DNA from: Planctomycetota bacterium
Lineage (GTDB): Bacteria; Planctomycetota; Phycisphaerae; SM23-33
Reading direction: 5' to 3'
Assembly (NCBI GenBank): GCA_030635145.1
Contig: DAOVZK010000004.1
Location: 34,497-98,496 of the forward strand
Length of the DNA stretch: 64,000 nucleotides
A model generated the notes under the pieces. It was not told where the DNA came from. It saw nothing but the letters and a program-made list of their open reading frames with translations, and made no database searches. Shown here in pieces: positions 33,572 through 45,807 of this stretch. Within the stretch, counting starts at the first letter, position 1; every line of letters begins with the position of its first letter. A program made the translations under genes and the position numbers.

Positions 33572-34759
33572 ATGAAAGTTGAGCTTCAAGTTTCTGGTGA
33601 TCTCACTGCTGACGTCGTTCGCGGCGGAGAGAATCACGCACTTGAGCTTGCCAAGGCTCTTGCCGATCGCGGGTACGAAATTTCCCTGCTTTCTCGCAGC
33701 CGATGCGACGAAGTTACGCATACCGAAGTCTGCGGTTTTCCCACGACGATCTTGCCGCGAATAAAACCGCGAAAATTCTTCTGGCGGCTGGGGATGTACC
33801 CACAGCTGGGCCGGTTGGCGCAGCAAATCAAAGATTACGGGGCCGACAGCGATATCGTTATCAATTTTTCACCGTGGCTGACGTTGGCGTCGCGAATGGG
33901 GCGCCCGAACGTACCGAACTTTTACGTCGTTGCCGATTTGCTCGTGGCGGCGAAACGGTTTCAGGAAGGCAAGACGTTCGCATTTAGCGGCGGAAACTGG
34001 TTGAAGTTTGGATTAGACGCCTGGCTGGAGAAAAAAGCGTATCTCAATGCCTGCGATATGGCCTTTCCGCAGACGCACTGGATGCTCGAGGGATTAGTTA
34101 CCAGCGGAATCCCACGCGAAAAGCTGCAACAGGGATATGTCGGTGCTTGTCCGACGACCTGCAAAGGCGACCGCACCCGCGAGACCGTTCGTGACGAACT
34201 GAACATTCCGCCCGCCGCCGCCGTTGTGCTGTATATGGGTGCGATGACGCGGCGGAAAAATCCGGTGTTGCTTGCACGTGCGATGAAAAATGCGCCCGAG
34301 AATCTTTACGCGATTTTTGCAGGGGCAGGGGACTGCGAGAGCGAAGTTCGCGCCGCCTGCACCGAAGCGGGCGTTGATAACCGTGTGCGATTTACCGGCT
34401 GGACGCAAACACCTGCGGATTACTATCGGGCTGCGGATATTTTGTGCCACACCGCATTGTACGAGACGGCGGGGATGATCTTTACCGAGGCGATGATGCA
34501 TTCGCTCGCAGTCGTGGCTCCGCAACTTGATCCGCCGAACGTTTACGGTATCGGGTGCGAGGCGATTATAGACGGGCAAAGCGGATTGCTGTACGATGCG
34601 CTAGACCCGCAGGACCTCGCCGCGAAACTTTCGCAACTTGCTACGGATGCTGCGTTGCTGGACTCGATGAAACGCGAAATTCCCAAACGCCTCGATGTTT
34701 TCAGCTGGACGCGCTACTGCGATATCATCGAAACCGAAATCAAACGCTTCGCGAAGTAA
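33572..34759 (+). CDS. GT4 glycosyltransferase
   Basis: GGENH, RRKN and ETAGMIFTEAM (EX7E) motifs. Confidence 0.85.
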   Translation: MKVELQVSGDLTADVVRGGENHALELAKALADRGYEISLLSRSRCDEVTHTEVCGFPTTILPRIKPRKFFWRLGMYPQLGRLAQQIKDYGADSDIVINFSPWLTLASRMGRPNVPNFYVVADLLVAAKRFQEGKTFAFSGGNWLKFGLDAWLEKKAYLNACDMAFPQTHWMLEGLVTSGIPREKLQQGYVGACPTTCKGDRTRETVRDELNIPPAAAVVLYMGAMTRRKNPVLLARAMKNAPENLYAIFAGAGDCESEVRAACTEAGVDNRVRFTGWTQTPADYYRAADILCHTALYETAGMIFTEAMMHSLAVVAPQLDPPNVYGIGCEAIIDGQSGLLYDALDPQDLAAKLSQLATDAALLDSMKREIPKRLDVFSWTRYCDIIETEIKRFAK

Positions 34760-34765
34760 CAGCCT

Positions 34766-36058
34766 CTAGTCGCATCGTTGCCATTCGGGTGGGTCGTTCA
34801 GACGGTACAGCATTTCCCCGGCCTTGGGCACATAGAGCTTACCTTCGTCTTCCTTGCCTTCCCATTCGGCGATGTCGATATCGGCGGGGTCGCGGTAGCC
34901 CATGTTGATCCGTTCGCAAAGCTCCTTCGGAATTCCCGTCGCCAGCGTAACCTTCACTCGCGACTGCTCCACCCCGTCTACAAAAGTGCCGATTCCGCGA
35001 ACATGCGTGCTGTGGGCGAGAATGCCCCACGGATAGTCTTTGAATTTGTCCCATTGCTCGACGAAATACGGCAGCGAATGGTAGCCGATCTGCTCGATGA
35101 CCGCACCGTGCGCGACGGCAAGTTCGTTGATGTGCGGGGCGTAGATAATCAGCTCACCGCCGTCGGCGACGGCGCATTCCATTTTGTACATGCATTTTCC
35201 GCCCGTCCACATTTCGTCGTACATCAGCGGAGCGCGGGATAGAATCGAATCGTACGCGCGGTCGCAGTAGGTGATGTGCGTTTTGTCCGAAAGATCAGCC
35301 GCCGCTGACCAGCTTGCGCGAACCTCATCGAAATATAACCCCGCCAAGTCGCTACCTTTTACGACCATGCTCAAGGCGTACTTGTCCATGTCGATCATGT
35401 CCATAGCCTCGTGCAAAAGTGCGCGGACGGGGGTATCCTTCACGCCGATCATTTTTGGAATCGTGATTAGTGCGCCCAGCCAGTGGAAAAAGTTCAGCAG
35501 CTCCTCGCCGCAAATGCCGGGGAAGAAATATTTCGCACCCCCGGAAAATCCCACGACTTCGTGCGGGAATACCGGCCCGGCGATCATAACGATGTCGTAG
35601 TCGAAGATCATCCTGTTTACGGTGACGTCTATGTCGCGGGAGAAGCGGGCGTTTTCAGGCGCGAGATATTTTTTGATTTCCGCCGCCGAGAACGTGCCGA
35701 TTTTCTTCAACGCGTCGGGGTTCTTCCATTCGTGATTAAAAATTTTGCTGCCGGGCAGCACCTCGCTACGCTGCCCAGGCTCGATGCCGAGAAGTTTGTC
35801 GAGTGAGTCTTCGCTCAGGGCGGGGTGCGTGCCGAGGGCTACGAGAAAATCCAACGCCTTTGCCCTTGGTGCGATATTTTTGTGGAGTTCGCGAGCGACT
35901 TTCGGCAGGGGGCAGGTGCGGGTATGATCGGGAATGATCACCAGCACGCGTTTGCCCTCGGGAGCTATGCGTTCCGCGGCGGCTGCGATTATTTCTTCTA
36001 TTTGCCCATCCGACAGCACAGCATCTTTTTGTCCAAACCCGATTACACTCATCGCCAT
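34766..36058 (-). CDS. Lactate racemase (LarA) family nickel-pincer protein
   Basis: PDHTR, ALGTH and PHEVVGFSGGAKYFFPG motifs. Confidence 0.82.
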   Translation of the reverse strand: MAMSVIGFGQKDAVLSDGQIEEIIAAAAERIAPEGKRVLVIIPDHTRTCPLPKVARELHKNIAPRAKALDFLVALGTHPALSEDSLDKLLGIEPGQRSEVLPGSKIFNHEWKNPDALKKIGTFSAAEIKKYLAPENARFSRDIDVTVNRMIFDYDIVMIAGPVFPHEVVGFSGGAKYFFPGICGEELLNFFHWLGALITIPKMIGVKDTPVRALLHEAMDMIDMDKYALSMVVKGSDLAGLYFDEVRASWSAAADLSDKTHITYCDRAYDSILSRAPLMYDEMWTGGKCMYKMECAVADGGELIIYAPHINELAVAHGAVIEQIGYHSLPYFVEQWDKFKDYPWGILAHSTHVRGIGTFVDGVEQSRVKVTLATGIPKELCERINMGYRDPADIDIAEWEGKEDEGKLYVPKAGEMLYRLNDPPEWQRCD

Positions 36059-36342
36059 TCTCGCTTTCGTCAATAAACAATAATTGTCCAATAATTGTCG
36101 CACGCTTTTCCCGCATGCCGCTACATCGTTTCTTATACCCCCGCGAGAAACTCCGATCAATTGTTTTCCGGTTTTGCACCTTGAATATGCGTCCAAAGAC
36201 ATTGACGCTACCTGTGAGGGGCGCGATTTCTCGAAGAGTGCCGCCCCCTTCGGTGCATAAAAAGTGGGTTATGCAAACTATTGTAAGCAAAAAAAATCAA
36301 AGTCTTTGCATTCTGCCTACTGCAATATACAATTGGAGTACT

Positions 36343-37665
36343 ATGATGCGGATAATACTTATTTCAATGGGCTTTCTTTTGATGATGACTGGTTTTGTGT
36401 CGGCTGAAAGTGAAAGCAAAACGGTCAAGCTTTCTTTCACCAAAAGCAAAAGCGTGCTCCGGCTAAGTTGGCCCATGAAACTCGGGAGCGGCGGATACCT
36501 CTTCAATAGTTCCACAAAGATATACGGGCACGATTTTTCTCTCAAGACCCAGAAAAAAGGCAGAAGCCTCGCCGTAAACCTCACCTCGAACGATGGTTCA
36601 TTTAAGCTGAAGCCCAAGATATATGCACGTAAGCCGATTGCCTTTAACATCCCCGCCAAGCTTGGCGAAAAAAATGTAATGCTGCCGTTGATGATGTCAA
36701 ACATTTTCACATCCGGCAAGGGCAAGAGCGAGGTTTATGCTCGCTACTATCCCGGGTGGGCGATGGCAGGGAAGGTCGGCAAGACGAAAATTTACCTTAT
36801 CGATGCGAATGTCGACACGAAGTTCGACACAAACGGCCGCGACTATATCGCCATCGGTTCATCGTACGCGATAAAACTTTGCAAGCAGACCGTAATCAAC
36901 GGTAAGCTTTATGAGGTATCGATCACCAGCGACGGAAGCGAGCTTACGCTTGAAGATCTCAAATCCGAGAAGCTTTGCAAAGTCGCCCTCAAAGCCCCCA
37001 AAGGCCTCGCCCGCTGGGGAGTGCTTTCTCTCAGCAACAACGAGGGAACATACAACATCGCCGCCAAAAATTGCAACGTGCTACCGGCTGGTACCTATAA
37101 AATCAGCTATGGGATATACGGCAAGGGTACGAATTACCTGTATCTCAGAAGGACCCAAAATTTCGATCCGCAGCTGGAAATTCGCGCGGGTAATATCAAC
37201 ACGATAAATATCGGTGCGCCTTTTGTTCTGAAGTTTAAGGCGACACTTACCGGCAAAACGGTAAAGGTCGATGCCAACATATCGGTCGCCGGGTGTTACG
37301 GTGAATCTTATCGGTACAGGTCATCTGTTAGAGGCAGAGGTGTGCCGCCGTCGGTGGCGATTTACGCGGGCAAAAAACGAGTTAGTACCGGCAAAATGGG
37401 GTTTGGCTGAGGCGGGAGCCTTTGCGGATACTCAAGGCGAGCATCCAAAGTTACGAAAAAAAACGGTTCGGTTGTTGTAGTCAGAACTTATGCGGGTATC
37501 GGCCGCGTTAAGGGCAAGGTTGTTTTTAGCGATGAGTCGAGTTCCGTATCCAAAGAAACGGAAATTGTAGAATACAAGCCCGTAAAAGAAAAACCGAAAG
37601 ATAACCAGACCGGCGAAGCAGAAGATAAGTCAACCGATAAAGAAAAATCGGACGATAAAGAGTAA
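36343..37665 (+). CDS. Putative secreted selenoprotein A, 440 aa; UGA 37408-37410 read as Sec356, motif FG-U-GGSLC
   Basis: GGAG RBS and signal peptide; frame stays open 84 codons past the TGA to TAA 37663-37665, then a terminator; SECIS-like hairpin; paralog at 40980-42278 has TGA at the aligned site. Confidence 0.8.
37420..37450 (+). promoter_or_regulatory. SECIS-like hairpin for UGA 37408
   Basis: CTTT-gc-GGAT-a-CTC[AAGGC]GAG-c-ATCC-AAAG; loop starts 23 nt after the UGA. Confidence 0.55.
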
Positions 37666-37681
37666 ATGCAGATTACAATAC

Positions 37682-37717
37682 ATACCGGGCGTTTTAGCGA
37701 GCGTCCGGTATTTCTCT
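37682..37717 (+). terminator. Intrinsic terminator after the read-through stop of selenoprotein A
   Basis: ATACCGGGCG...CGTCCGGTAT stem followed by TTCTCT. Confidence 0.55.
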
Positions 37718-37779
37718 GCGCGAAATCCCATCTAAAGTCATTGACTAAAACATAATTGCAGACGAAAATAAGATTATCC

Positions 37780-37872
37780 GGAGGTGCCCGGTATCCTGGT
37801 GGTGCCCTTGGTCTTCAAAACCAATGAGGGGCTCAAAAAGTCCTTGGTGGGTTCGATTCCCATTCACCTCCG
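37780..37872 (+). tRNA. selC: tRNA-Sec (anticodon UCA)
   Basis: Acceptor GGAGGTG/CACCTCC with discriminator G; 6-bp D stem; anticodon arm TTGGT-CTTCAAA-ACCAA; long variable arm; GGTTCGATTCC T-loop; no encoded CCA. Confidence 0.93.
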
Positions 37873-38431: not shown

Positions 38432-39235
38432 ATGGCGAAAAAACTCAGCTATTTCCGACTCCGGCGAATCGTACAGTTTCTGGTTCTACCGGTCTGGATG
38501 CTGCCGATAGCTGCACTTCGCGGAATACCGGGGTGCGTTTTTCACTGCTACGCCTGCCCGCTGAGTTCCTTTGCCTGCCCCATCGGGCTTATTGCCACAT
38601 CAATGGCGATGGGATTGGTGCCGTTGATGGTGCTGGGCGTAATCTTTGTCGCCGCTGCCGCCGTCGGTAGTGCGATTTGTGGATGGTTGTGCCCGTTCGG
38701 GTTACTGCAGGATTTGTTCCATAAAATTCCGACGCCGAAATTCAAACTCCCCGCATGGACAGGAATCGGTAGATACATCACGCTCATCGCGTTGGTGATC
38801 GTAGGGCCGCTGCTTTGGGGCAAGTCGGTCGACAACTACGCTTTCATCTGCAACCTATGCCCGGCCGGTGCAATCGAAGCCGGCCTGCCTCGTATAATCG
38901 CCGGACAAGTCTCCGTCGAAAGGCTGCTGAGCGTCAAATATATTGCCGCCGCGGTAATCGTGGGGCTGATGCTTTTCACGTATCGCCCGTGGTGTCGAAT
39001 GCTCTGCCCGCTGGGCGGATTTTTCGCGCTATTCAATCGCGTGAGCGTTTTGTTCCTTCGCCTTAAAACCGACAAATGCAGCAACTGCAAAACCTGCATC
39101 GTTGACTGCCCCTGCGATATCGACGTCAAAAAGGCCATCAACACATCAAGCTGCATACGCTGCATGAAATGCACTCAATGCAAAGTAGTTTCCCCGACAA
39201 CCATATTCGAAAAATTCGGTAACGGCGGGGAGTAA
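38432..39235 (+). CDS. Membrane 4Fe-4S binding protein (NapH/MauN/YccM-like polyferredoxin)
   Basis: CYACP..CPIG, CGWLCPFG, CNLCPAG and WCRMLCPLG motifs; two CxxCxxC clusters. Confidence 0.88.
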   Translation: MAKKLSYFRLRRIVQFLVLPVWMLPIAALRGIPGCVFHCYACPLSSFACPIGLIATSMAMGLVPLMVLGVIFVAAAAVGSAICGWLCPFGLLQDLFHKIPTPKFKLPAWTGIGRYITLIALVIVGPLLWGKSVDNYAFICNLCPAGAIEAGLPRIIAGQVSVERLLSVKYIAAAVIVGLMLFTYRPWCRMLCPLGGFFALFNRVSVLFLRLKTDKCSNCKTCIVDCPCDIDVKKAINTSSCIRCMKCTQCKVVSPTTIFEKFGNGGE

Positions 39236-39263: not shown

Positions 39264-39518
39264 TCAACAGCAGCAACCGTTGCTGTCGCCACCGACTTTT
39301 TTCATTTGTGCCACGTAGAACATCCGCACAACCGCGCCACCGACACCCACCCCCAGCCAAGCCGCCTCGTCAAGTTGCTCTTGCGTAATACCCATCTCAC
39401 GCGATTTTTTGTAATGAACCTCAAAACACTCTTCACATCGCCCGAGAATTATCAATGCAAACGTCATCAGTTGCTTGGTTTTCGCATCAATTTGCCCATC
39501 CGCGGAGACGGCCTGCAT
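39264..39518 (-). CDS. Carboxymuconolactone decarboxylase/AhpD-like domain (CxxC), in frame with selD
   Basis: IDAKTKQL...RCEECFEVH...GITQEQLDEA. Confidence 0.8.
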   Translation of the reverse strand: MQAVSADGQIDAKTKQLMTFALIILGRCEECFEVHYKKSREMGITQEQLDEAAWLGVGVGGAVVRMFYVAQMKKVGGDSNGCCC

Positions 39519-39533
39519 GAATGCACCAAATTT

Positions 39534-40976
39534 TTACGCCGAATCTTTTGCCGAATCATCTACAGGCGAATTACCGCAAACGTCACTGCAGCACTCATCT
39601 TGCGATTCCGCCGGTTTTTCGCAGCACGCGTTTTGTGATGGGTGTTGGGGTTCTTTCTCCGCGGAACAGCAGCAGGGCTTGGAGGTTGCTTCCTGCTGAG
39701 GCGAAATTTGATTATTGCAAACAACCTCGATGAAACCGTCAGAGTCCTGCGTAATTTCACCGATCACCCAGGCATTGGTTCCGCTGTTTTTCAGGTCGGT
39801 TAAGGCGTCGGTAAGTTTGTCTTTCGGTATCCCCAGCAGCAGTCCGCCCGACGTCTGCGCGTCGAAGCCCAGATAATACGCACCATCTGACACGCCGTCT
39901 TCTCGCGAGATATCATCCGCGACGAACTCCATATTACGCTCAATCGCACCGGGGATAACATCATCCCCAAGCAATTCAATCGCACCGCTAAACGCCGGTA
40001 ATGCACTCGCGAAAATCTTCGCCGTCACCCCACTGGCTCTAACCATCGCGATGAGATGCCCGAACAATCCGAACCCCGTAACATCGGTGCAGGCTGATGC
40101 GTATTTGCTACCGACGACGGCGGCGGTGTTGTTAAGAGTCGTCATTGACTCGCAGCTTTCGGCAAGTCCGCACTGGTCAGCTCTGCCGATCTGGGATGCG
40201 AACGCCAACACGCCGCTGCCAAGTTTTTTCGTCAGTACCAGCACATCCCCAGTCTTAACCGAATCATGTTTGAGATATTTTTTCTCATCGACCAGCCCCG
40301 TTATGGCGAACCCGAGTTTGATTTCTTCGTCTTTAATGCTGTGCCCGCCGATTAACGCAACCCCCGCGGCGTTGAAAATTTCCTGCGCACCAGCCATCAA
40401 CTCATACATCAATTCCCCGTCGAGCGTTTCGACCGGGAACCCCAGAATGCTAAGGGCGGTTTTTGGTACACCTCCCATGGCGTAGATATCGCTGAGGCAG
40501 TTGGCGGCACAGATTTTACCCATCTGCCTTGCATCGTCCACACATGGTGTCATAACGTCGACGGTTTGCACAATGCATAGTCCGTCGGTCAGCCGATAAA
40601 CACCCGCATCGTCGGCGGCGGGTAGTCCGCAGATAACGTTCGGGTCATTGCTAACGGTCAGCCGTTTGAGGACGGCTTCGAGATCGGCGGGTGGAATTTT
40701 GCTCGCGCACCCGGCGTTATGAACCAGTTGCGTCAGGCGAATGTCTTTGATGTTTTTCGGTTCGGGGCGTTCACCGGCACACGGGCAAATCCCCTGATCT
40801 TTGAAAACATCGCACGGGCAGGGACGTTTGGGATCACATATGCAGTGCCCAAGTTTTCTCGACCGCTGCATAATTCGCCGGCGCTTAACCAGATCGACTT
40901 TCGACATCTTTTTCAAAATTTCCAATCCCTCTAGCACGGCCCCCTTCATCCCGGGGGGACGTGTTGAGGGTTGCAA
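39534..40976 (-). CDS. selD: Selenophosphate synthetase with N- and C-terminal Cys-rich extensions (Cys form)
   Basis: GCASKI, DDAGVY, QTVD, GGHSI, TDVTGFGLFGH and DAQTSGGLL motifs. Confidence 0.95.
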   Translation of the reverse strand: MQPSTRPPGMKGAVLEGLEILKKMSKVDLVKRRRIMQRSRKLGHCICDPKRPCPCDVFKDQGICPCAGERPEPKNIKDIRLTQLVHNAGCASKIPPADLEAVLKRLTVSNDPNVICGLPAADDAGVYRLTDGLCIVQTVDVMTPCVDDARQMGKICAANCLSDIYAMGGVPKTALSILGFPVETLDGELMYELMAGAQEIFNAAGVALIGGHSIKDEEIKLGFAITGLVDEKKYLKHDSVKTGDVLVLTKKLGSGVLAFASQIGRADQCGLAESCESMTTLNNTAAVVGSKYASACTDVTGFGLFGHLIAMVRASGVTAKIFASALPAFSGAIELLGDDVIPGAIERNMEFVADDISREDGVSDGAYYLGFDAQTSGGLLLGIPKDKLTDALTDLKNSGTNAWVIGEITQDSDGFIEVVCNNQISPQQEATSKPCCCSAEKEPQHPSQNACCEKPAESQDECCSDVCGNSPVDDSAKDSA

Positions 40977-40979
40977 ATG

Positions 40980-42278
40980 CTACTTCGTCCTGATTTTCGT
41001 ATCCTTGAGTTTAATTCCAAACGGCCCGGCGGCGACCTTCGGTTTGATCGTAAACACTCCGCTTAAATTCTTTGGCACACTCCACGTGTGCGAGCATGTA
41101 CCACCTCAACCATACTCAAACTTACCCGTGTGGACAAGTTTGCCTTGCTCGTCGAAAACTTCCACTTGAGGTTTGCTGCTGTACATCGAATTAACCATCG
41201 CCGACATCCCCGACACATCGGTTAGCTTGAAATTCATCGTAATCCGCCGGCCGCGAGCTTTGATTTTTATTTGCCCGGTTAGCGGAGCTCCGATAGCCAG
41301 CTCAAAAGTCTTACCAGCTGCTGCATTGAATTTCTTCGCCGTTTTCTGCCGCAAGTTCTGCTGATCAATGCTCAATACATCGCCCTTGGTTGGTTGGATC
41401 TGCGTAAACTGCATCACAGTGTATTTACCGGCGGGAATTTCCATTGGTTTGCTGGAACCATCAAGCATCAGTATGTAGTCTTTACCGATTAGACCGATCG
41501 ACCAGTTATCATGATCGATTTTGAGCGTGGCTGTCTTGGCGGTTGAGGGGGTCGCGACAATTTCCGACTTGTCGGGCGACAACGCCACGTCGTACCAAAC
41601 ACCATCAAGAAGTACCGGTGCACCGTAGAGGGATTTTTTCAATTGATTCGGCTGCTTGAAGTTTCCCTTTCCCGTATCAATCAGCAACGTATCTCCGATT
41701 GTAACTCCGCTATTTTTCTGATATCGCGACTTGCTACCGCAGTTCAGGTTGTTGTTACCATCGACAATACGCACCGGATAGGTTTTGTCGCCAAATTTGC
41801 AGGTACCTTCCAATGCGGTTCCAAGGTATGCAATGATGTATTTATGATCACTGCTTGTATAGATGTGTCCCGAAAGCATTACCGGTATGGATTTACCGTT
41901 ACGTTCTACTTGTAATGTTGCAGGTCCAAAGTTCAAGCGGGAAGGATTACCCTTCTCCCTTTTTTTCAGGGGGACTACTTGCTTGTCGTTAAATTTGCCC
42001 TTGCCGCTGAAGTCAAAACGGACTACGTCGAAGCCTTCGGTGTCGGGTGATTGCGAGTCGATTGCCACGCGGATATTCTTCCCCCGCAGCTTTGTGACGA
42101 GAGCTTTTTTGCTGACGGTACCGTCGCCTTCTTTTGGCTTGGTGAATTGGTGGGCAAACAACGATTGTTGCATTATCGCCTGGCCCTGAGTTGCGGGGAC
42201 TGGTTTGAGATCCCCTTGGGCGATAGTTGCAGTCAAAACAACCAGCAGTAAAATGAACAGACCTATTGACGTTTTCAT
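40980..42278 (-). CDS. Putative secreted selenoprotein B, 432 aa; UGA 41106-41108 read as Sec391, motif YG-U-GGTC
   Basis: Signal peptide; frame continues UGGTCSHTWSVPKNLSG...IRTK to TAG 40980-40982, just before the selD start; lies between selB and selD; SECIS-like hairpin. Confidence 0.85.
41075..41091 (-). promoter_or_regulatory. SECIS-like hairpin for UGA 41106
   Basis: GCACAC[GTGGA]GTGTGC; G-starting loop 20 nt after the UGA, matching the general bacterial SECIS pattern. Confidence 0.7.
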
Positions 42279-42385: not shown

Positions 42386-44332
42386 TTATTCGTTTTCGAG
42401 AATTTCGCGGGCCAGTCGGCCGGGCCGGCGGCGGTTGGCGTTGCGGACGGTCCAATGCGTAACGTCGAAATAATCCAGCAGCGGCACGGCGTATTTTCTG
42501 CTGACACCGATGGCGTCGCGAAACTCAACTGTCTCGAAGAATTTCTGCCCGCGGAACAAATCGAGCACAACTTCGCGCGCCTTATCCACACCGCATTTGT
42601 GCATGTAGACGTTATCAGCTAACCGCACCGCCAAGCTGCGAGAACAAATCAGCTCCAGAACCTCGTCAATTTTTTGCTGCGGAGACTGCAGCTGCTCGGC
42701 AAGCTGATCGGGACGCGGTGGAGCACACAGAGATTTTTTTAATACGCTCAATACTTGTTCGTAAAGTTCTGCAATATCGCTCGGCAGCGAGAGATTAAAT
42801 TCGCAGTGCGAAATTTTCCCCGCCTCTTCGCTGATTTTTCCATCGGCGAGAAGTTTTTCGCAGCACTTGGCGAAAATCGCTTTGGGCAAGGCCGTCTGTG
42901 TAAGCAGGGCAGCTGTGTCGAGCCCCGGTAACTGCGGGTTGGCTGCGTGGAATTGTTCCAGTGCGTGCGTAATAGTTTCACATGCCTGCGAAAAATAATC
43001 CGCACCGGCAATTGAATCCCCAAGAACGATGGCGTCGCCATGCTGCGTAAGGTTTGCGATAATTCCCGCGATTTCATTGTCGGTAAGTTGCAGCATATCC
43101 GCCAGGCCGTCGGTGGTAACCATGCGATCCGAATATTTTAAATAGCGTTTTGCAAAGTTTGTAGCATATTCTGGGTGTTCGATGGCGTCGCTGAGTTGTT
43201 CAAGTTTTTCGATTACTTCAGGCCGGTTGCGGCGTAATTTGCGGTTGCTGCGATCCAGAAACACACCGCCACCCAACGTCGTAAAAATTCCGCCCATCTG
43301 CCCGCGAACAACGAATCGGTCACCCGGAATTACGGGCAGCTTGACAGCGGATCGAAACTGAACATATCCACGCCAGTTCGATTCCATAACACCGGATGAC
43401 AAGGGAACGATTTTGACCGGCACGTCTATGGTGCCGACATGCAGGCGGACTTCGGCATGGTCTTTGATAGGTTTTGCGATGCTCCCCAGCACGCGAAACG
43501 ACGCTTCGAACATCTCGGGTGTCGCTATTTTTCGTTCGCTGAGCAAGCTTCCGCGGGTGCAGTCTTCGGGGGGCGTGTTGGCGAGATTAATCGCCGTACA
43601 TTCGCCCGCCCGGGCTGTGTCGCAGAGCTGCCCGTAAACCTCAAGCCCGCGGACTCGCACTTTTTTTCCCGATGGCCAGGCGCAGAGGGCATCGCCAACG
43701 CTCACGCTACCGCTGCACGGAATTCCCGACGCGACGGTTCCGAACCCCTTGACGTGAAAACTTCGCTCGACCCACTGGCGGTAAAGTCCACCGGTGCTTC
43801 GCTCAGCGGTGGCGTCGACTTCGCGGTTCAGCTCGGTCAGAAAATTGTCGTACCCCTCGCCGGTAATATTGGAAACTTCGCAAACCGCCTTGCCCTCGAG
43901 AAACGTACCCTTAACGAACGACCGTATCTGCCCACCCAGTTCCATCCGCCGTTTTTCACTCACGAGGTCAACCTTAGTCATCACCACCAAACCAAACGTC
44001 ACTCCCATCAGCGTAAGAATATCCAGATGCTCGCGGGTTTGCGGCATGATGCCATCGTCGGCGGCGATAACGAGCATCAGCACATCCACACCGTGCGCAC
44101 CGGCAACCATGTTTCGGATGAACCCCACATGCCCGGGAACGTCCACAATGCCCACAATACGATCATCCGCCATTTTGCACGGGGCAAAACCCAGCTCGAT
44201 AGTCAGCCCGCGCGTTTGCTCTTCAGCGAGCGTATCGGTGTTGCACCCAGTGAGCATTTTCACCAGCGCCGTCTTGCCATGATCCACATGCCCAGCCGTC
44301 CCAAGCATCACGTTTTTACAACGTTGCGTCAT
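42386..44332 (-). CDS. selB: Selenocysteine-specific elongation factor SelB
   Basis: GTAGHVDHGKT, RGLTIELGF and DVPGH motifs; C-terminal winged helix FRDAIGVSRKYAVPLLDYFD. Confidence 0.96.
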   Translation of the reverse strand: MTQRCKNVMLGTAGHVDHGKTALVKMLTGCNTDTLAEEQTRGLTIELGFAPCKMADDRIVGIVDVPGHVGFIRNMVAGAHGVDVLMLVIAADDGIMPQTREHLDILTLMGVTFGLVVMTKVDLVSEKRRMELGGQIRSFVKGTFLEGKAVCEVSNITGEGYDNFLTELNREVDATAERSTGGLYRQWVERSFHVKGFGTVASGIPCSGSVSVGDALCAWPSGKKVRVRGLEVYGQLCDTARAGECTAINLANTPPEDCTRGSLLSERKIATPEMFEASFRVLGSIAKPIKDHAEVRLHVGTIDVPVKIVPLSSGVMESNWRGYVQFRSAVKLPVIPGDRFVVRGQMGGIFTTLGGGVFLDRSNRKLRRNRPEVIEKLEQLSDAIEHPEYATNFAKRYLKYSDRMVTTDGLADMLQLTDNEIAGIIANLTQHGDAIVLGDSIAGADYFSQACETITHALEQFHAANPQLPGLDTAALLTQTALPKAIFAKCCEKLLADGKISEEAGKISHCEFNLSLPSDIAELYEQVLSVLKKSLCAPPRPDQLAEQLQSPQQKIDEVLELICSRSLAVRLADNVYMHKCGVDKAREVVLDLFRGQKFFETVEFRDAIGVSRKYAVPLLDYFDVTHWTVRNANRRRPGRLAREILENE

Positions 44333-45747
44333 TGGGCTGCACCGATCATCGCAAAGGTTTTTGCAATGGCATCTATGTCGCCCGGAAGCAAGGTTCGCAC
44401 ATCGAGAATGACTTTCTCCTCGCTTATACGGCTGAAAATCGGCACCTCGCCCGTTCGCAACTCAGCCCCCAGCGAATCTGCCGACATCCCATCAACGCTA
44501 ACCCCCACGCCGAATCCGGGAAGCTTTTCCATCGGTAACGATCCGCTCCCGAGGAAACCTGCTGAGTCGATGACGGCGGCGGCGACTTTCCCCGAGGCCT
44601 TGCTGATAGCATCACACAACTGCTGCGCCGTTTGCTTAAGTTCGTCGGGCTTCAGCGAGAGCATCATGTAAAGCGGATGTTCGCGGTTGAGCTTTTCACG
44701 ATCACGAAAAAGCATCAATGTTCGCTCAAGCACCATAAGCGAGCTTTTGTCGGCCCGAAACGCACGATACAACGGGTGCTTACGACATTTGTTGATAAAC
44801 TTTTCCTTACCGACGAGAATTCCGCCTTGGGCGGCACCGATGAGTTTGTCGGCGCTGAAAAGTACGATATCGGCCCCGGTTTGCACGGAGTGCTGCACGG
44901 TCGGTTCGTGCGGAAGCCCGTAATCGGCAAGGTCGACAAGTGCCCCGGCCCCAAGGTCGTCGATCATCGGTAAGTCATGCTCGTGGGCAAGGGCGGTGAG
45001 TTCTTCGACGCCTACGCTGCTGGTAAATCCGACGATTCGATAGTTGCTGGGATGTGCGCGGAAGACGGCGGCGGTGTTTTCGGTGAGGGCTTTTTCGTAG
45101 TCGCGCAGATGCGTGCGGTTTGTCGATCCGACTTCGACGAGTTTGCAGCGTGAAAGCTCCATGACCTCCGGTAAGCGAAAGCTCCCGCCGATTTCGATCA
45201 GCTGCCCGCGCGAAACGATGACTTCTTTGTTGCTCGCCATCGCTGCCAACACCAACGTGGTTGCGGCGGCGTTGTTGTTGACCACGATCCCGGCCTCGGC
45301 GCCGGTTAGTTCGCAAAGCATGTTGTTAACTTTGGTGTCACGCTCGCATCGCTTGCCGGTTTTTTCGTCTATCGCAAGCGTTACGTAACCCTTAAGGTCG
45401 TTGATGATGTCGTCGACTACGCAGGTCGGCCAGACGGCACGGCCTAATCCGGTGTGCAGAATGATGCCGGTGGCATTTACGGCCCGTCGCAGATGCGGCC
45501 GCGTTCGCTCGCACAGATTTTGCTGCACGATACCCAAAATGAACTCGCTGCTGATGTGCTGCACTCCGCAGCGGCCGGTGCTGTCGTTGAGAATCTGCTG
45601 GCGCAGAGAATCGATAGCATCTCGCACGCAATTTACCACGAGCGTTCGCGGATGATCTTGCAGCCAAGCCGCCACGATATCAATTTTAATGAGATCATCT
45701 ATCGACGGAAGTTTTCGCAAAAGTTCTTGTTTGATCGCCGCTGCCAT
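44329..45747 (-). CDS. selA: L-seryl-tRNA(Sec) selenium transferase
   Basis: NATGIILHTGLGRA, VNNNAAA, SRGQLIEIGGSFR and FSADKL motifs; ATGA overlap with selB. Confidence 0.96.
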   Translation of the reverse strand: MAAAIKQELLRKLPSIDDLIKIDIVAAWLQDHPRTLVVNCVRDAIDSLRQQILNDSTGRCGVQHISSEFILGIVQQNLCERTRPHLRRAVNATGIILHTGLGRAVWPTCVVDDIINDLKGYVTLAIDEKTGKRCERDTKVNNMLCELTGAEAGIVVNNNAAATTLVLAAMASNKEVIVSRGQLIEIGGSFRLPEVMELSRCKLVEVGSTNRTHLRDYEKALTENTAAVFRAHPSNYRIVGFTSSVGVEELTALAHEHDLPMIDDLGAGALVDLADYGLPHEPTVQHSVQTGADIVLFSADKLIGAAQGGILVGKEKFINKCRKHPLYRAFRADKSSLMVLERTLMLFRDREKLNREHPLYMMLSLKPDELKQTAQQLCDAISKASGKVAAAVIDSAGFLGSGSLPMEKLPGFGVGVSVDGMSADSLGAELRTGEVPIFSRISEEKVILDVRTLLPGDIDAIAKTFAMIGAAQ

Positions 45748-45807
45748 ATCAGCCTCCCACAAGTAGCATTAATTTTTTCGACAAGATTACAGGATAGTTA
45801 TTTGTTT

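Follow-up and report, generated by a model that had tools for sequence, protein, structure and literature searches.

Gene A and its in-frame TGA codon

We examined an in-frame TGA codon in a gene, here called A, that lies in a 64,000-nucleotide stretch of DNA (the window) from a Planctomycetota bacterium of the Phycisphaerae (assembly GCA_030635145.1, contig DAOVZK010000004.1, forward-strand positions 34,497 to 98,496). All coordinates below are those of the window. A preliminary description of this DNA had read the TGA as a selenocysteine (Sec, U) codon and had paired A with a second gene of the same kind, paralogue B. We observed that the frame of A reaches KMGFG-TGA at 37408-37410 and that the next 84 codons (37411-37662) are open up to a TAA at 37663-37665, exactly as had been described. 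The features of the gene are as follows.

36343..37665, + strand: coding sequence (CDS) of paralogue A, 440 codons plus TAA, with Sec as codon 356; its translation with TGA as U aligns end to end with homologues of other genomes
36343..36405, + strand: predicted signal peptide MMRIILISMGFLLMMTGFVSA, with cleavage before ESES, judged by eye from the sequence; the predicted local distance difference test score (pLDDT) is <50 for residues 1-22
37408..37410, + strand: TGA read as selenocysteine U356; the column is TGA in 33 distinct homologues and invariant in a 28-row alignment of C-terminal domains
37408..37425, + strand: U-G-G-S-L-C motif (U356 to C361, UxxxxC), a putative selenenylsulfide pair; none of U, G, G and C varies in the 28-row alignment
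37411..37662, + strand: 84 post-Sec codons, coding for conserved beta-strands and then a low-complexity acidic/lysine tail

The ATG at 36343 is preceded by GGAG at 36335-36338, and a second ATG follows at 36346. Close homologues begin at the same signal peptide, and a similar hydrophobic N-terminal segment opens all the aligned homologues of A. This favours the proposed start at 36343 over the listed one at 36115, with 36343 and 36346 both fitting. The upstream start is further disfavoured by the overlap of 36115-36202 with a divergent LarA-like open reading frame (ORF). This neighbour, a nickel-pincer racemase/epimerase homologue at 34766-36202 on the - strand (NF052594, 168 bits, below the cut-off), is divergent from gene A, and it is its listed ORF start that overlaps the spurious 36115 start.

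We searched 41 related genomes with the read-through protein. Matches were seen in 11 of them, and nine genes from eight genomes carried TGA within a shared motif, G-U-G-G-x(1-2)-C-x-Y-S/T-x-R/S-V. A family profile run against 401 genomes of the class matched in 62, with 98 of the 120 matches having at least one in-frame TGA and 22 having none. All 33 distinct members extracted from fetched loci carried U in one alignment column, with Cys in none of them, and these TGA genes span several Phycisphaerae families. As judged from the alignment, the recurrence of an in-frame TGA at one column in 33 homologues is more than chance. The matches lie in Phycisphaerae or other Planctomycetota metagenome-assembled genomes, mostly the former. 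Both spacings of the motif occur in the family, UGGxC and UGGxxC; A has the second and B the first (U-G-G-T-C, or UxxxC), so that the motif of A is one residue longer than that of B, as had been noted. The four non-Sec paralogues that were read as DNA (L049, L050, L051 and L008) had lost both U and C, and none showed a Cys substitution.

Several Phycisphaerae genomes (G115:C10, G057:C54, G203:C160, G176 and G216) have three to four or more TGA-bearing copies. These sets are often clustered on one contig near selA, and include short forms with open frames of ~230-260 codons.

The database relatives of A tell of the same codon from the other side. The four closest homologues are 48-61% identical to A, and three of these stop precisely after ...GFG, ...DFG or ...GYG; no close relative of A turned up in two scans of metagenome contigs. 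When 1.84 billion representatives (clusters at 50% identity) were searched with the profile, 3956 proteins matched at E <= 1e-3; of these, 1833 reached <= 1e-10 and 81 reached <= 1e-30. Among the best 150, 120 had their own C-terminus at profile position 171-173, just before the U column. The source names of these relatives were only 'hypothetical protein'. Since the members very probably contain selenocysteine and are uncatalogued, gene callers appear to cut them short everywhere.

We read 26 of the 30 relatives among the best 150 that did not end at the U column at full length. Cys was present at this column in three of the 26, P0079 (SCGGVC), P0081 (GCGYSC) and P0098, and it is through these three that the family has the Cys homologues used as a criterion for a UGA-encoded selenoprotein. 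As read from these alignments, Sec/Cys pairs exist in the family but are unusually rare. Gly with the Cys retained was seen in P0017 (…YG-G-GGTC…) and P0112 (…FG-G-GGIC…), where the Gly is one base away from TGA. The remaining full-length relatives had lost the motif, some of them having Arg, Glu, Ser, Leu or Pro at the U column.

We further evaluated the stretch past the TGA for coding character. The 40-45 residues after U align across the family, and differences at the three codon positions numbered 211:147:351 in the 41-45 codons past the TGA (21 homologue pairs, which are not independent). A coding signal or conservation past the TGA, on which the preliminary description had let its claim depend, was therefore found, with differences biased to the third position. 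The genome-trained codon score of 37411-37662 was +0.244 bits/codon in frame, against -0.587 and -1.390 out of frame. In some members (L006, L025, L045, L046 and their relatives) the protein extends 100-160 residues past Sec, with a low-complexity linker followed by a conserved helical module. This module resembles TPR or YfiO (weak Pfam matches), and the real stop in these genes is often a second TGA.

A SECIS-like hairpin after the TGA

Bacterial Sec insertion is directed by a selenocysteine insertion sequence (SECIS); the minimal SECIS of Escherichia coli fdhF is a 17-nt stem-loop 11 nt after the UGA. An alignment of 31 distinct segments, from the TGA to +54, showed a family hairpin, GUACUC-NNGGN-GAGUAC, at alignment columns 21-26/32-37. 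Its copies in the two genes of the window are given below.

37426..37446, + strand: SECIS-like hairpin of A, GGAUACUC-AAGGC-GAGCAUCC; differs from the family hairpin by one A.C mismatch and two additional G:C pairs
41075..41091, - strand: SECIS-like hairpin of B, GCACAC-GUGGA-GUGUGC; a row of the family alignment

The six pairs were formed in 185 of the 186 cells of the alignment. Three pairs showed compensatory changes: 6 sequences had CG in place of UA, 10 had AU in place of UA, and the A copy had AU in place of GC. One-sided changes were absent. The covariation score of 0.243, in which a seventh, mostly unpaired pair was also counted, was reached by 0 of 500 shuffles, and it collapsed in slid controls. 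RNAalifold predicted the same helix as the covariation. In one pair the third, synonymous base of a Val codon changes together with the first base of a Tyr/His codon, a constraint that acts on the RNA and not on the protein. The loop has an invariant G29, and a G30 in >=90% of sequences, which makes a GG at loop positions 3-4 a family feature.

The loop AAGGC of A (37434-37438) was found 23 nt after the UGA, as in the preliminary description. Two alternative folds had been left to be compared, and the covariation supports GGAT/ATCC with AAGGC as the loop, and not GCCTT/AAGGC. The remark that this loop lacks G in its first two positions is true for the A copy, but the G residues that the family conserves sit at positions 3-4. 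With its extra G:C pairs the A hairpin starts 15 nt after the UGA, and its conserved 6-bp core at 17 nt; the core of B starts at 14 nt. The A hairpin alone has a folding energy of -5.9 kcal/mol (z = -2.96, with 2 of 200 shuffles as stable). The 17 nt at 41074-41090, one base off the B hairpin, fold with five of its six pairs at -5.6 kcal/mol.

The bacterial SECIS (bSECIS) model, according to PMC13188914, has a loop of 3-9 nt, a stem of 4-16 bp and 16-37 nt from the UGA to the loop, together with a G at loop position 1 or 2 and a minimum free energy <= -7.5 kcal/mol; a subset of genuine elements fail this model, by the same account. The hairpins of A and B lie within this geometry, with a 5-nt loop, a stem of 6 bp (8 positions in A) and a UGA-to-loop distance of 23 nt (A) or 20 nt (B). 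Other members, unlike A, follow the loop-G rule, with loops of AGGGC or GUGGC, or GGC after an extra pair. Like the consensus bacterial SECIS and that of fdhF, A and B have a small hairpin inside the CDS, with a 17-nt core and a 5-nt loop containing GG. They differ from the consensus in that the GG is at loop positions 3-4 in many members, including A, and in that the A hairpin is weaker than -7.5 kcal/mol.

When we examined the four non-Sec paralogues, the hairpin was absent in three and kept only in L049 (G202:C8). Here the U and C of the motif are gone and the hairpin is GUACAC-AAGGA-GUGUGC, which suggests a recent loss of Sec, with Sec ancestral in that branch.

The selenocysteine locus and its linkage with the family

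Downstream of A, the window contains the tRNA for selenocysteine (tRNA-Sec), the sel genes and paralogue B.

37682..37711, + strand: terminator-like 13-bp hairpin; 37663-37725 folds at -23.3 kcal/mol (z = -4.08, 1 of 200 shuffles as stable)
37780..37872, + strand: tRNA-Sec, anticodon TCA (ARAGORN; Rfam RF01852, 69.3 bits against a gathering score of 47)
38432..39235, + strand: NapH/MauN-like membrane (poly)ferredoxin (NCBIfam matches below cut-off, E = 2.3e-13)
39264..39518, - strand: small AhpD-like CxxC protein, ending Cys-Cys-Cys and then TGA (TIGR00778, 31.8 bits against a cut-off of 27.8)
39534..40976, - strand: selD, selenophosphate synthetase, Cys form (TIGR00476, 321.3 bits against 125)
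40981..42278, - strand: paralogue B, 431 codons, ATG at 42278, Sec codon at 41108-41106, TAG stop at 40983-40981
42386..44332, - strand: selB (TIGR00475, 287 bits against 242)
~44329..45762, - strand: selA (TIGR00474, 524 bits against 268)

We observed that selA, selB, selD and tRNA-Sec are all in the window, within 8 kb, each over its curated cut-off. A is indeed upstream of tRNA-Sec, with 114 nt from its TAA to the tRNA, and the terminator-like hairpin that had been described after this TAA is the 13-bp element at 37682-37711; it has a weak T-run and was not among the calls of a consensus terminator scan. Paralogue B sits between selB and selD on the same strand and looks, from this arrangement, like part of a selA-selB-B-selD operon. 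When the whole genome was searched by tblastn with A, B was missed, the two being too diverged. B was located by a motif scan (its motif context is E-Y-G-U-G-G-T-C-S-H-T) and confirmed by a profile of the C-terminal domain, which matched A at 1.5e-67 and B at 3.9e-55. No other member was found in this genome (2.38 Mb, 93% complete).

The co-occurrence of the family with selA was evaluated in the 401 genomes. Of these, 143 have a selA gene, 55 among the 62 genomes that hold a family member and 88 among the remaining 339. Three of the seven family-positive genomes without selA (G009, G409 and G080) hold TGA-less forms only, and two more without a selA match (G342 and G090) have tRNA-Sec and selB over the cut-off. 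A member lies within 20 kb of selA on the same contig in at least 31 of the 55 genomes. The tRNA-Sec is ~30-140 nt downstream of a family gene in seven further genomes of the same taxonomic family (L003 and L043-L048), and L026 repeats the layout of A, tRNA-Sec, AhpD-like gene, selD and B.

Protein structure, known families and interpretation

The AlphaFold2 model of full-length A (mean pLDDT 83.5, predicted template modelling score 0.80) is all-beta and multi-domain. Its pLDDT is ~76-95 for residues 350-400 (78-95 for 350-395) and low afterwards. The C-terminal domain modelled alone had a pLDDT of 86.5, with 91-96 around U. In this model the motif is in a loop between strands, and in that of A the post-UGA strands complete the last beta-sandwich. 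EF-hand-type loops were seen in 4 of 13 members (weak Pfam matches), with a conserved D-x-N-x-D-G-x-x-T-Q-D-G-x-D-A motif. In non-Sec relatives the domain follows an M56 membrane sensor of the BlaR1 type or a Ser/Thr kinase, and these fusions fit an extracytoplasmic module, as far as domain order can tell.

We then compared A with known families. Pfam and NCBIfam gave no family for A at E <= 1, and NCBIfam none for B at E <= 0.001. The name 'Selenoprotein A' in the preliminary description is a label only: A matches no Pfam model, and hence not the glycine-reductase model PF04723. GrdA (glycine reductase selenoprotein A) was rejected as an identity, as both the PF04723 match and the CxxU motif are absent in A, whose motif is UGGSLC. 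Neither the full model nor the C-terminal domain had a Foldseek match in the PDB at E <= 1e-3, the best rows being generic immunoglobulin (Ig), FN3, MG and C2 sandwiches. Table 1 of the 2026 review PMC13188914 gives 119 prokaryotic selenoprotein families with domain identifiers, nearly all defined by Pfam or NCBIfam. None of these shares the motif or architecture of A, as compared by Pfam or NCBIfam/TIGRFAM models, cd-/PTHR-only families excepted. In the accessible text of BSepDB (PMC13326102) and deep-Sep (PMC12013277) there was no mention of planctomycetes. Full-text literature searches found no description of such a family; survey supplements, which were outside this scope, could list it.

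The resemblances to catalogued families are partial. With the UxxC/CxxU thioredoxin-fold selenoproteins (Prx-like, DsbA-like, Trx and Grx, as described in PMC13188914), the A family shares a UGA with a downstream hairpin, a Sec near a conserved Cys, and truncation by gene callers. Unlike them it is without the thioredoxin fold, has a spacing of U-x3-C or U-x4-C with two invariant Gly, has its site on a loop of the C-terminal beta-sandwich, within a secreted protein of several domains, and rarely has Cys forms. Secreted proteins of planctomycetes and Bacteroidota commonly carry DUF1573, a beta-sandwich domain. The motif of A starts U-G like that of the DUF1573 (PF07610) 'UGC' selenoproteins, but it is UGGx(1-2)C and not UGC, and PF07610 matched neither A (E <= 1) nor appeared among the family matches of 13 full-length members.

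NF049953, 'Hypothetical protein DG', has the motif GUxG and comes from Desulfosediminicola (PMC12013277); the string G-U-x-G fits the G-U-G-G of A. Identity with it was rejected, as there was nothing at the locus and the best match in the genome (E = 0.06, elsewhere) was far below the 130-bit cut-off. The UGSC-containing family NF041046 likewise has a short motif of the U-G-x-C type, but neither A nor B matched it in the NCBIfam searches given above. Finally, the C-terminal domain gave Foldseek rows with the MG domains of C5 (probability <=0.93, E >= 0.02), a likeness to the MG/Ig-like sandwiches of complement C3/C5 and alpha-2-macroglobulin. Unlike these, the A family has no significant match and no thioester domain, and we know of no Sec in complement C3/C5 or alpha-2-macroglobulin proteins. 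The MG2 domain (PF01835) was also rejected, since only the relative P0112 matches it (17.7 bits against a cut-off of 32.8, E = 0.0046) and A does not.

Together, the conserved TGA and downstream peptide, the covarying hairpin, the Sec machinery of the same locus and the co-occurrence with selA in 401 genomes support the proposal that the TGA is decoded as Sec. We consider it highly likely that A is a genuine secreted selenoprotein whose UGA is decoded by the Sec system of its own locus through a hairpin in the CDS, and that it belongs to a large uncatalogued family with a U-G-G-x(1-2)-C loop. In all probability gene A encodes a genuine selenoprotein whose large family is outside the catalogues consulted. 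The UGA at 37408-37410 would be decoded in a 440-residue secreted protein by SelA, SelB, SelD and tRNA-Sec, encoded in one 10-kb locus, and the recoding would be directed by the short hairpin with its 6-bp stem and the conserved GG in its 5-nt loop. Members of the family have a predicted signal peptide, often EF-hand-like calcium loops, several beta-sandwich domains and the invariant motif in a loop of the last domain. The Sec and the nearby Cys may form a reversible selenenylsulfide. This site would be redox-active or bind chalcogen or metal, outside the cytoplasm, at the envelope, and a redox or chalcogen/metal-binding function there is probable, going by the motif.

Several observations weigh against this interpretation. 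The A copy fails two bSECIS rules, with its loop AAGGC and with -5.9 against -7.5 kcal/mol (PMC13188914), and the 53-nt region of A is not unusually stable (z = -1.44). The codon-bias check that had been proposed for 37411-37662 came out best in frame, but with a low-end score. It is moderate support only, because the score lies at the 14th percentile of true coding windows and is also reached by 6.65% of in-frame windows after true stops. Cys forms are rare and most non-Sec relatives are without the whole motif, and because these have lost the motif the Sec/Cys pairs are thin as a criterion. Two genomes also depart from the linkage: G091 has a TGA-bearing member and no Sec machinery over the cut-off, and G159 a TGA-bearing member with a borderline tRNA-Sec only and no selB over the cut-off. 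In families f4, f15 and f18, 58 of 59 genomes have selA and no family member, which indicates that the family is not needed for the Sec trait in general. For the functional part, there is no PDB fold match, and a redox or binding role is read from the motif alone.

Among the alternatives, a tentative one accepts the selenoprotein and differs in its chemistry. Here the Sec/Cys pair would bind a metal or chalcogen (selenium, sulfur, copper, mercury or nickel) and serve selenium capture or delivery for SelD. The place of B between selB and selD, the retention of members within 20 kb of selA, the conserved neighbours (the NapH-like membrane ferredoxin and the AhpD-like protein with its C-terminal Cys-Cys), the Cys-rich extensions of SelD, and a fold that is a binding-type beta-sandwich and not a thioredoxin fold all speak for it. 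However, the Sec trait and its main client may merely be inherited together, which would produce the same linkage, and many genomes hold several copies distant from sel genes. As members sit inside or beside sel genes, a tie to selenium handling is possible, and the position of the genes beside sel genes, the NapH-like ferredoxin and the Cys-Cys-tailed AhpD-like protein suggests such a link. The NapH/MauN-like polyferredoxin is a possible electron donor for an extracytoplasmic partner.

A wider version, which we regard as unlikely as a whole, would make the family the almost Sec-obligate extracytoplasmic part of a self-contained Phycisphaerae 'selenium cassette'. In it, B and A would, at the cell envelope, capture or reduce environmental selenium or chalcogens and feed SelD together with the NapH-like ferredoxin and the AhpD-like protein; the Sec machinery of this genome may be kept for A and B alone, and Sec would be ancestral, with the non-Sec paralogues decayed.

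That the TGA is an ordinary stop, giving a 355-residue secreted product with the later frame due to chance or a degenerating remnant, we consider very improbable. Such a stop would account for the ends that gene callers give to three of the four closest homologues, for the weak A hairpin with its two broken rules and for the codon score that frames after true stops also reach. It is at odds with the conservation of the TGA column and the downstream residues in 33 genes with third-position-biased substitutions, with downstream strands that are built into the last beta-sandwich and modelled with confidence, with the conserved helical module >100 residues downstream in some members, and with TGA forms that track selA. 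Read-through of the TGA with a standard residue (Trp, Gly or Cys, the codon being reassigned or decoded by a near-cognate tRNA) finds some echo in the Gly of P0017 and P0112 and the Arg, Glu, Ser, Leu or Pro of others, most of them without the motif, and is scarcely credible given that TGA serves as a normal stop in this genome (for example at the end of the GMP synthase domain), that the site is flanked by a covarying SECIS-type hairpin and lies within a sel-gene locus, that TGA forms are almost only in selA-positive genomes, and that the residue replacing U with the motif kept is Cys in three cases.

Catalogued prokaryotic selenoprotein families are few (~119), and nearly all are cytoplasmic and thiol-oxidoreductase-like with many Cys homologues. 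If A is a selenoprotein, it would bring a large new family unlike the usual ones, as its members would be secreted, built of beta-sandwiches, nearly always Sec over Cys, and physically tied to the genes for Sec insertion. Recognition of the family would allow thousands of truncated Planctomycetota annotations to be corrected, since essentially every database entry is cut short. It would explain retention of the Sec trait in many Phycisphaerae, offer a compact and well-defined SECIS variant for study, and point to specific proteins that may carry out redox or selenium chemistry outside the cell in anoxic sediments.

We also screened this genome, crudely, for further genes with a TGA followed by a hairpin. 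The screen gave 53 candidates. Eight were chosen by ORF length or motif, and Pfam inspection indicated that seven of them were ordinary stops or spurious frames. The eighth, L072, is a plausible 451-aa ORF with no Pfam match. The screen overlooked A due to its mismatch, and it therefore cannot exclude further selenoproteins. A Sec-type FdhA was not found in this genome.

Some smaller features of the locus may be added. A sigma-70-like match, TTGACT-17-GAAAAT (9/12; 37741-37769, + strand), lies just upstream of tRNA-Sec, so that this tRNA may possess its own promoter, going by a consensus match only. A NapH-like homologue adjoins tRNA-Sec also in L043 (3-704), making two genomes in all. SelD, in its Cys form (…NAGCASK…), has Cys-rich additions at both ends, an extension, HCICDPKRPCPCDVFKDQGICPC, at the N-terminus and a tail at the C-terminus (…KPCCCSAEK…NACCEK…DECCSDVCG…), both unusual for SelD. 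The terminal TGA of the AhpD-like gene was considered as a Sec codon and rejected. Homologues beside selD in L045 (3294-3548) and L026 (10493-10741) end CCG-TAG and CCS-TAG, stopping one residue past the conserved Cys-Cys at the same length, and because they use TAG there the TGA is taken as an ordinary stop. A Cys-Cys(-x) tail is present just before the stop of the AhpD-like protein in all three genomes.

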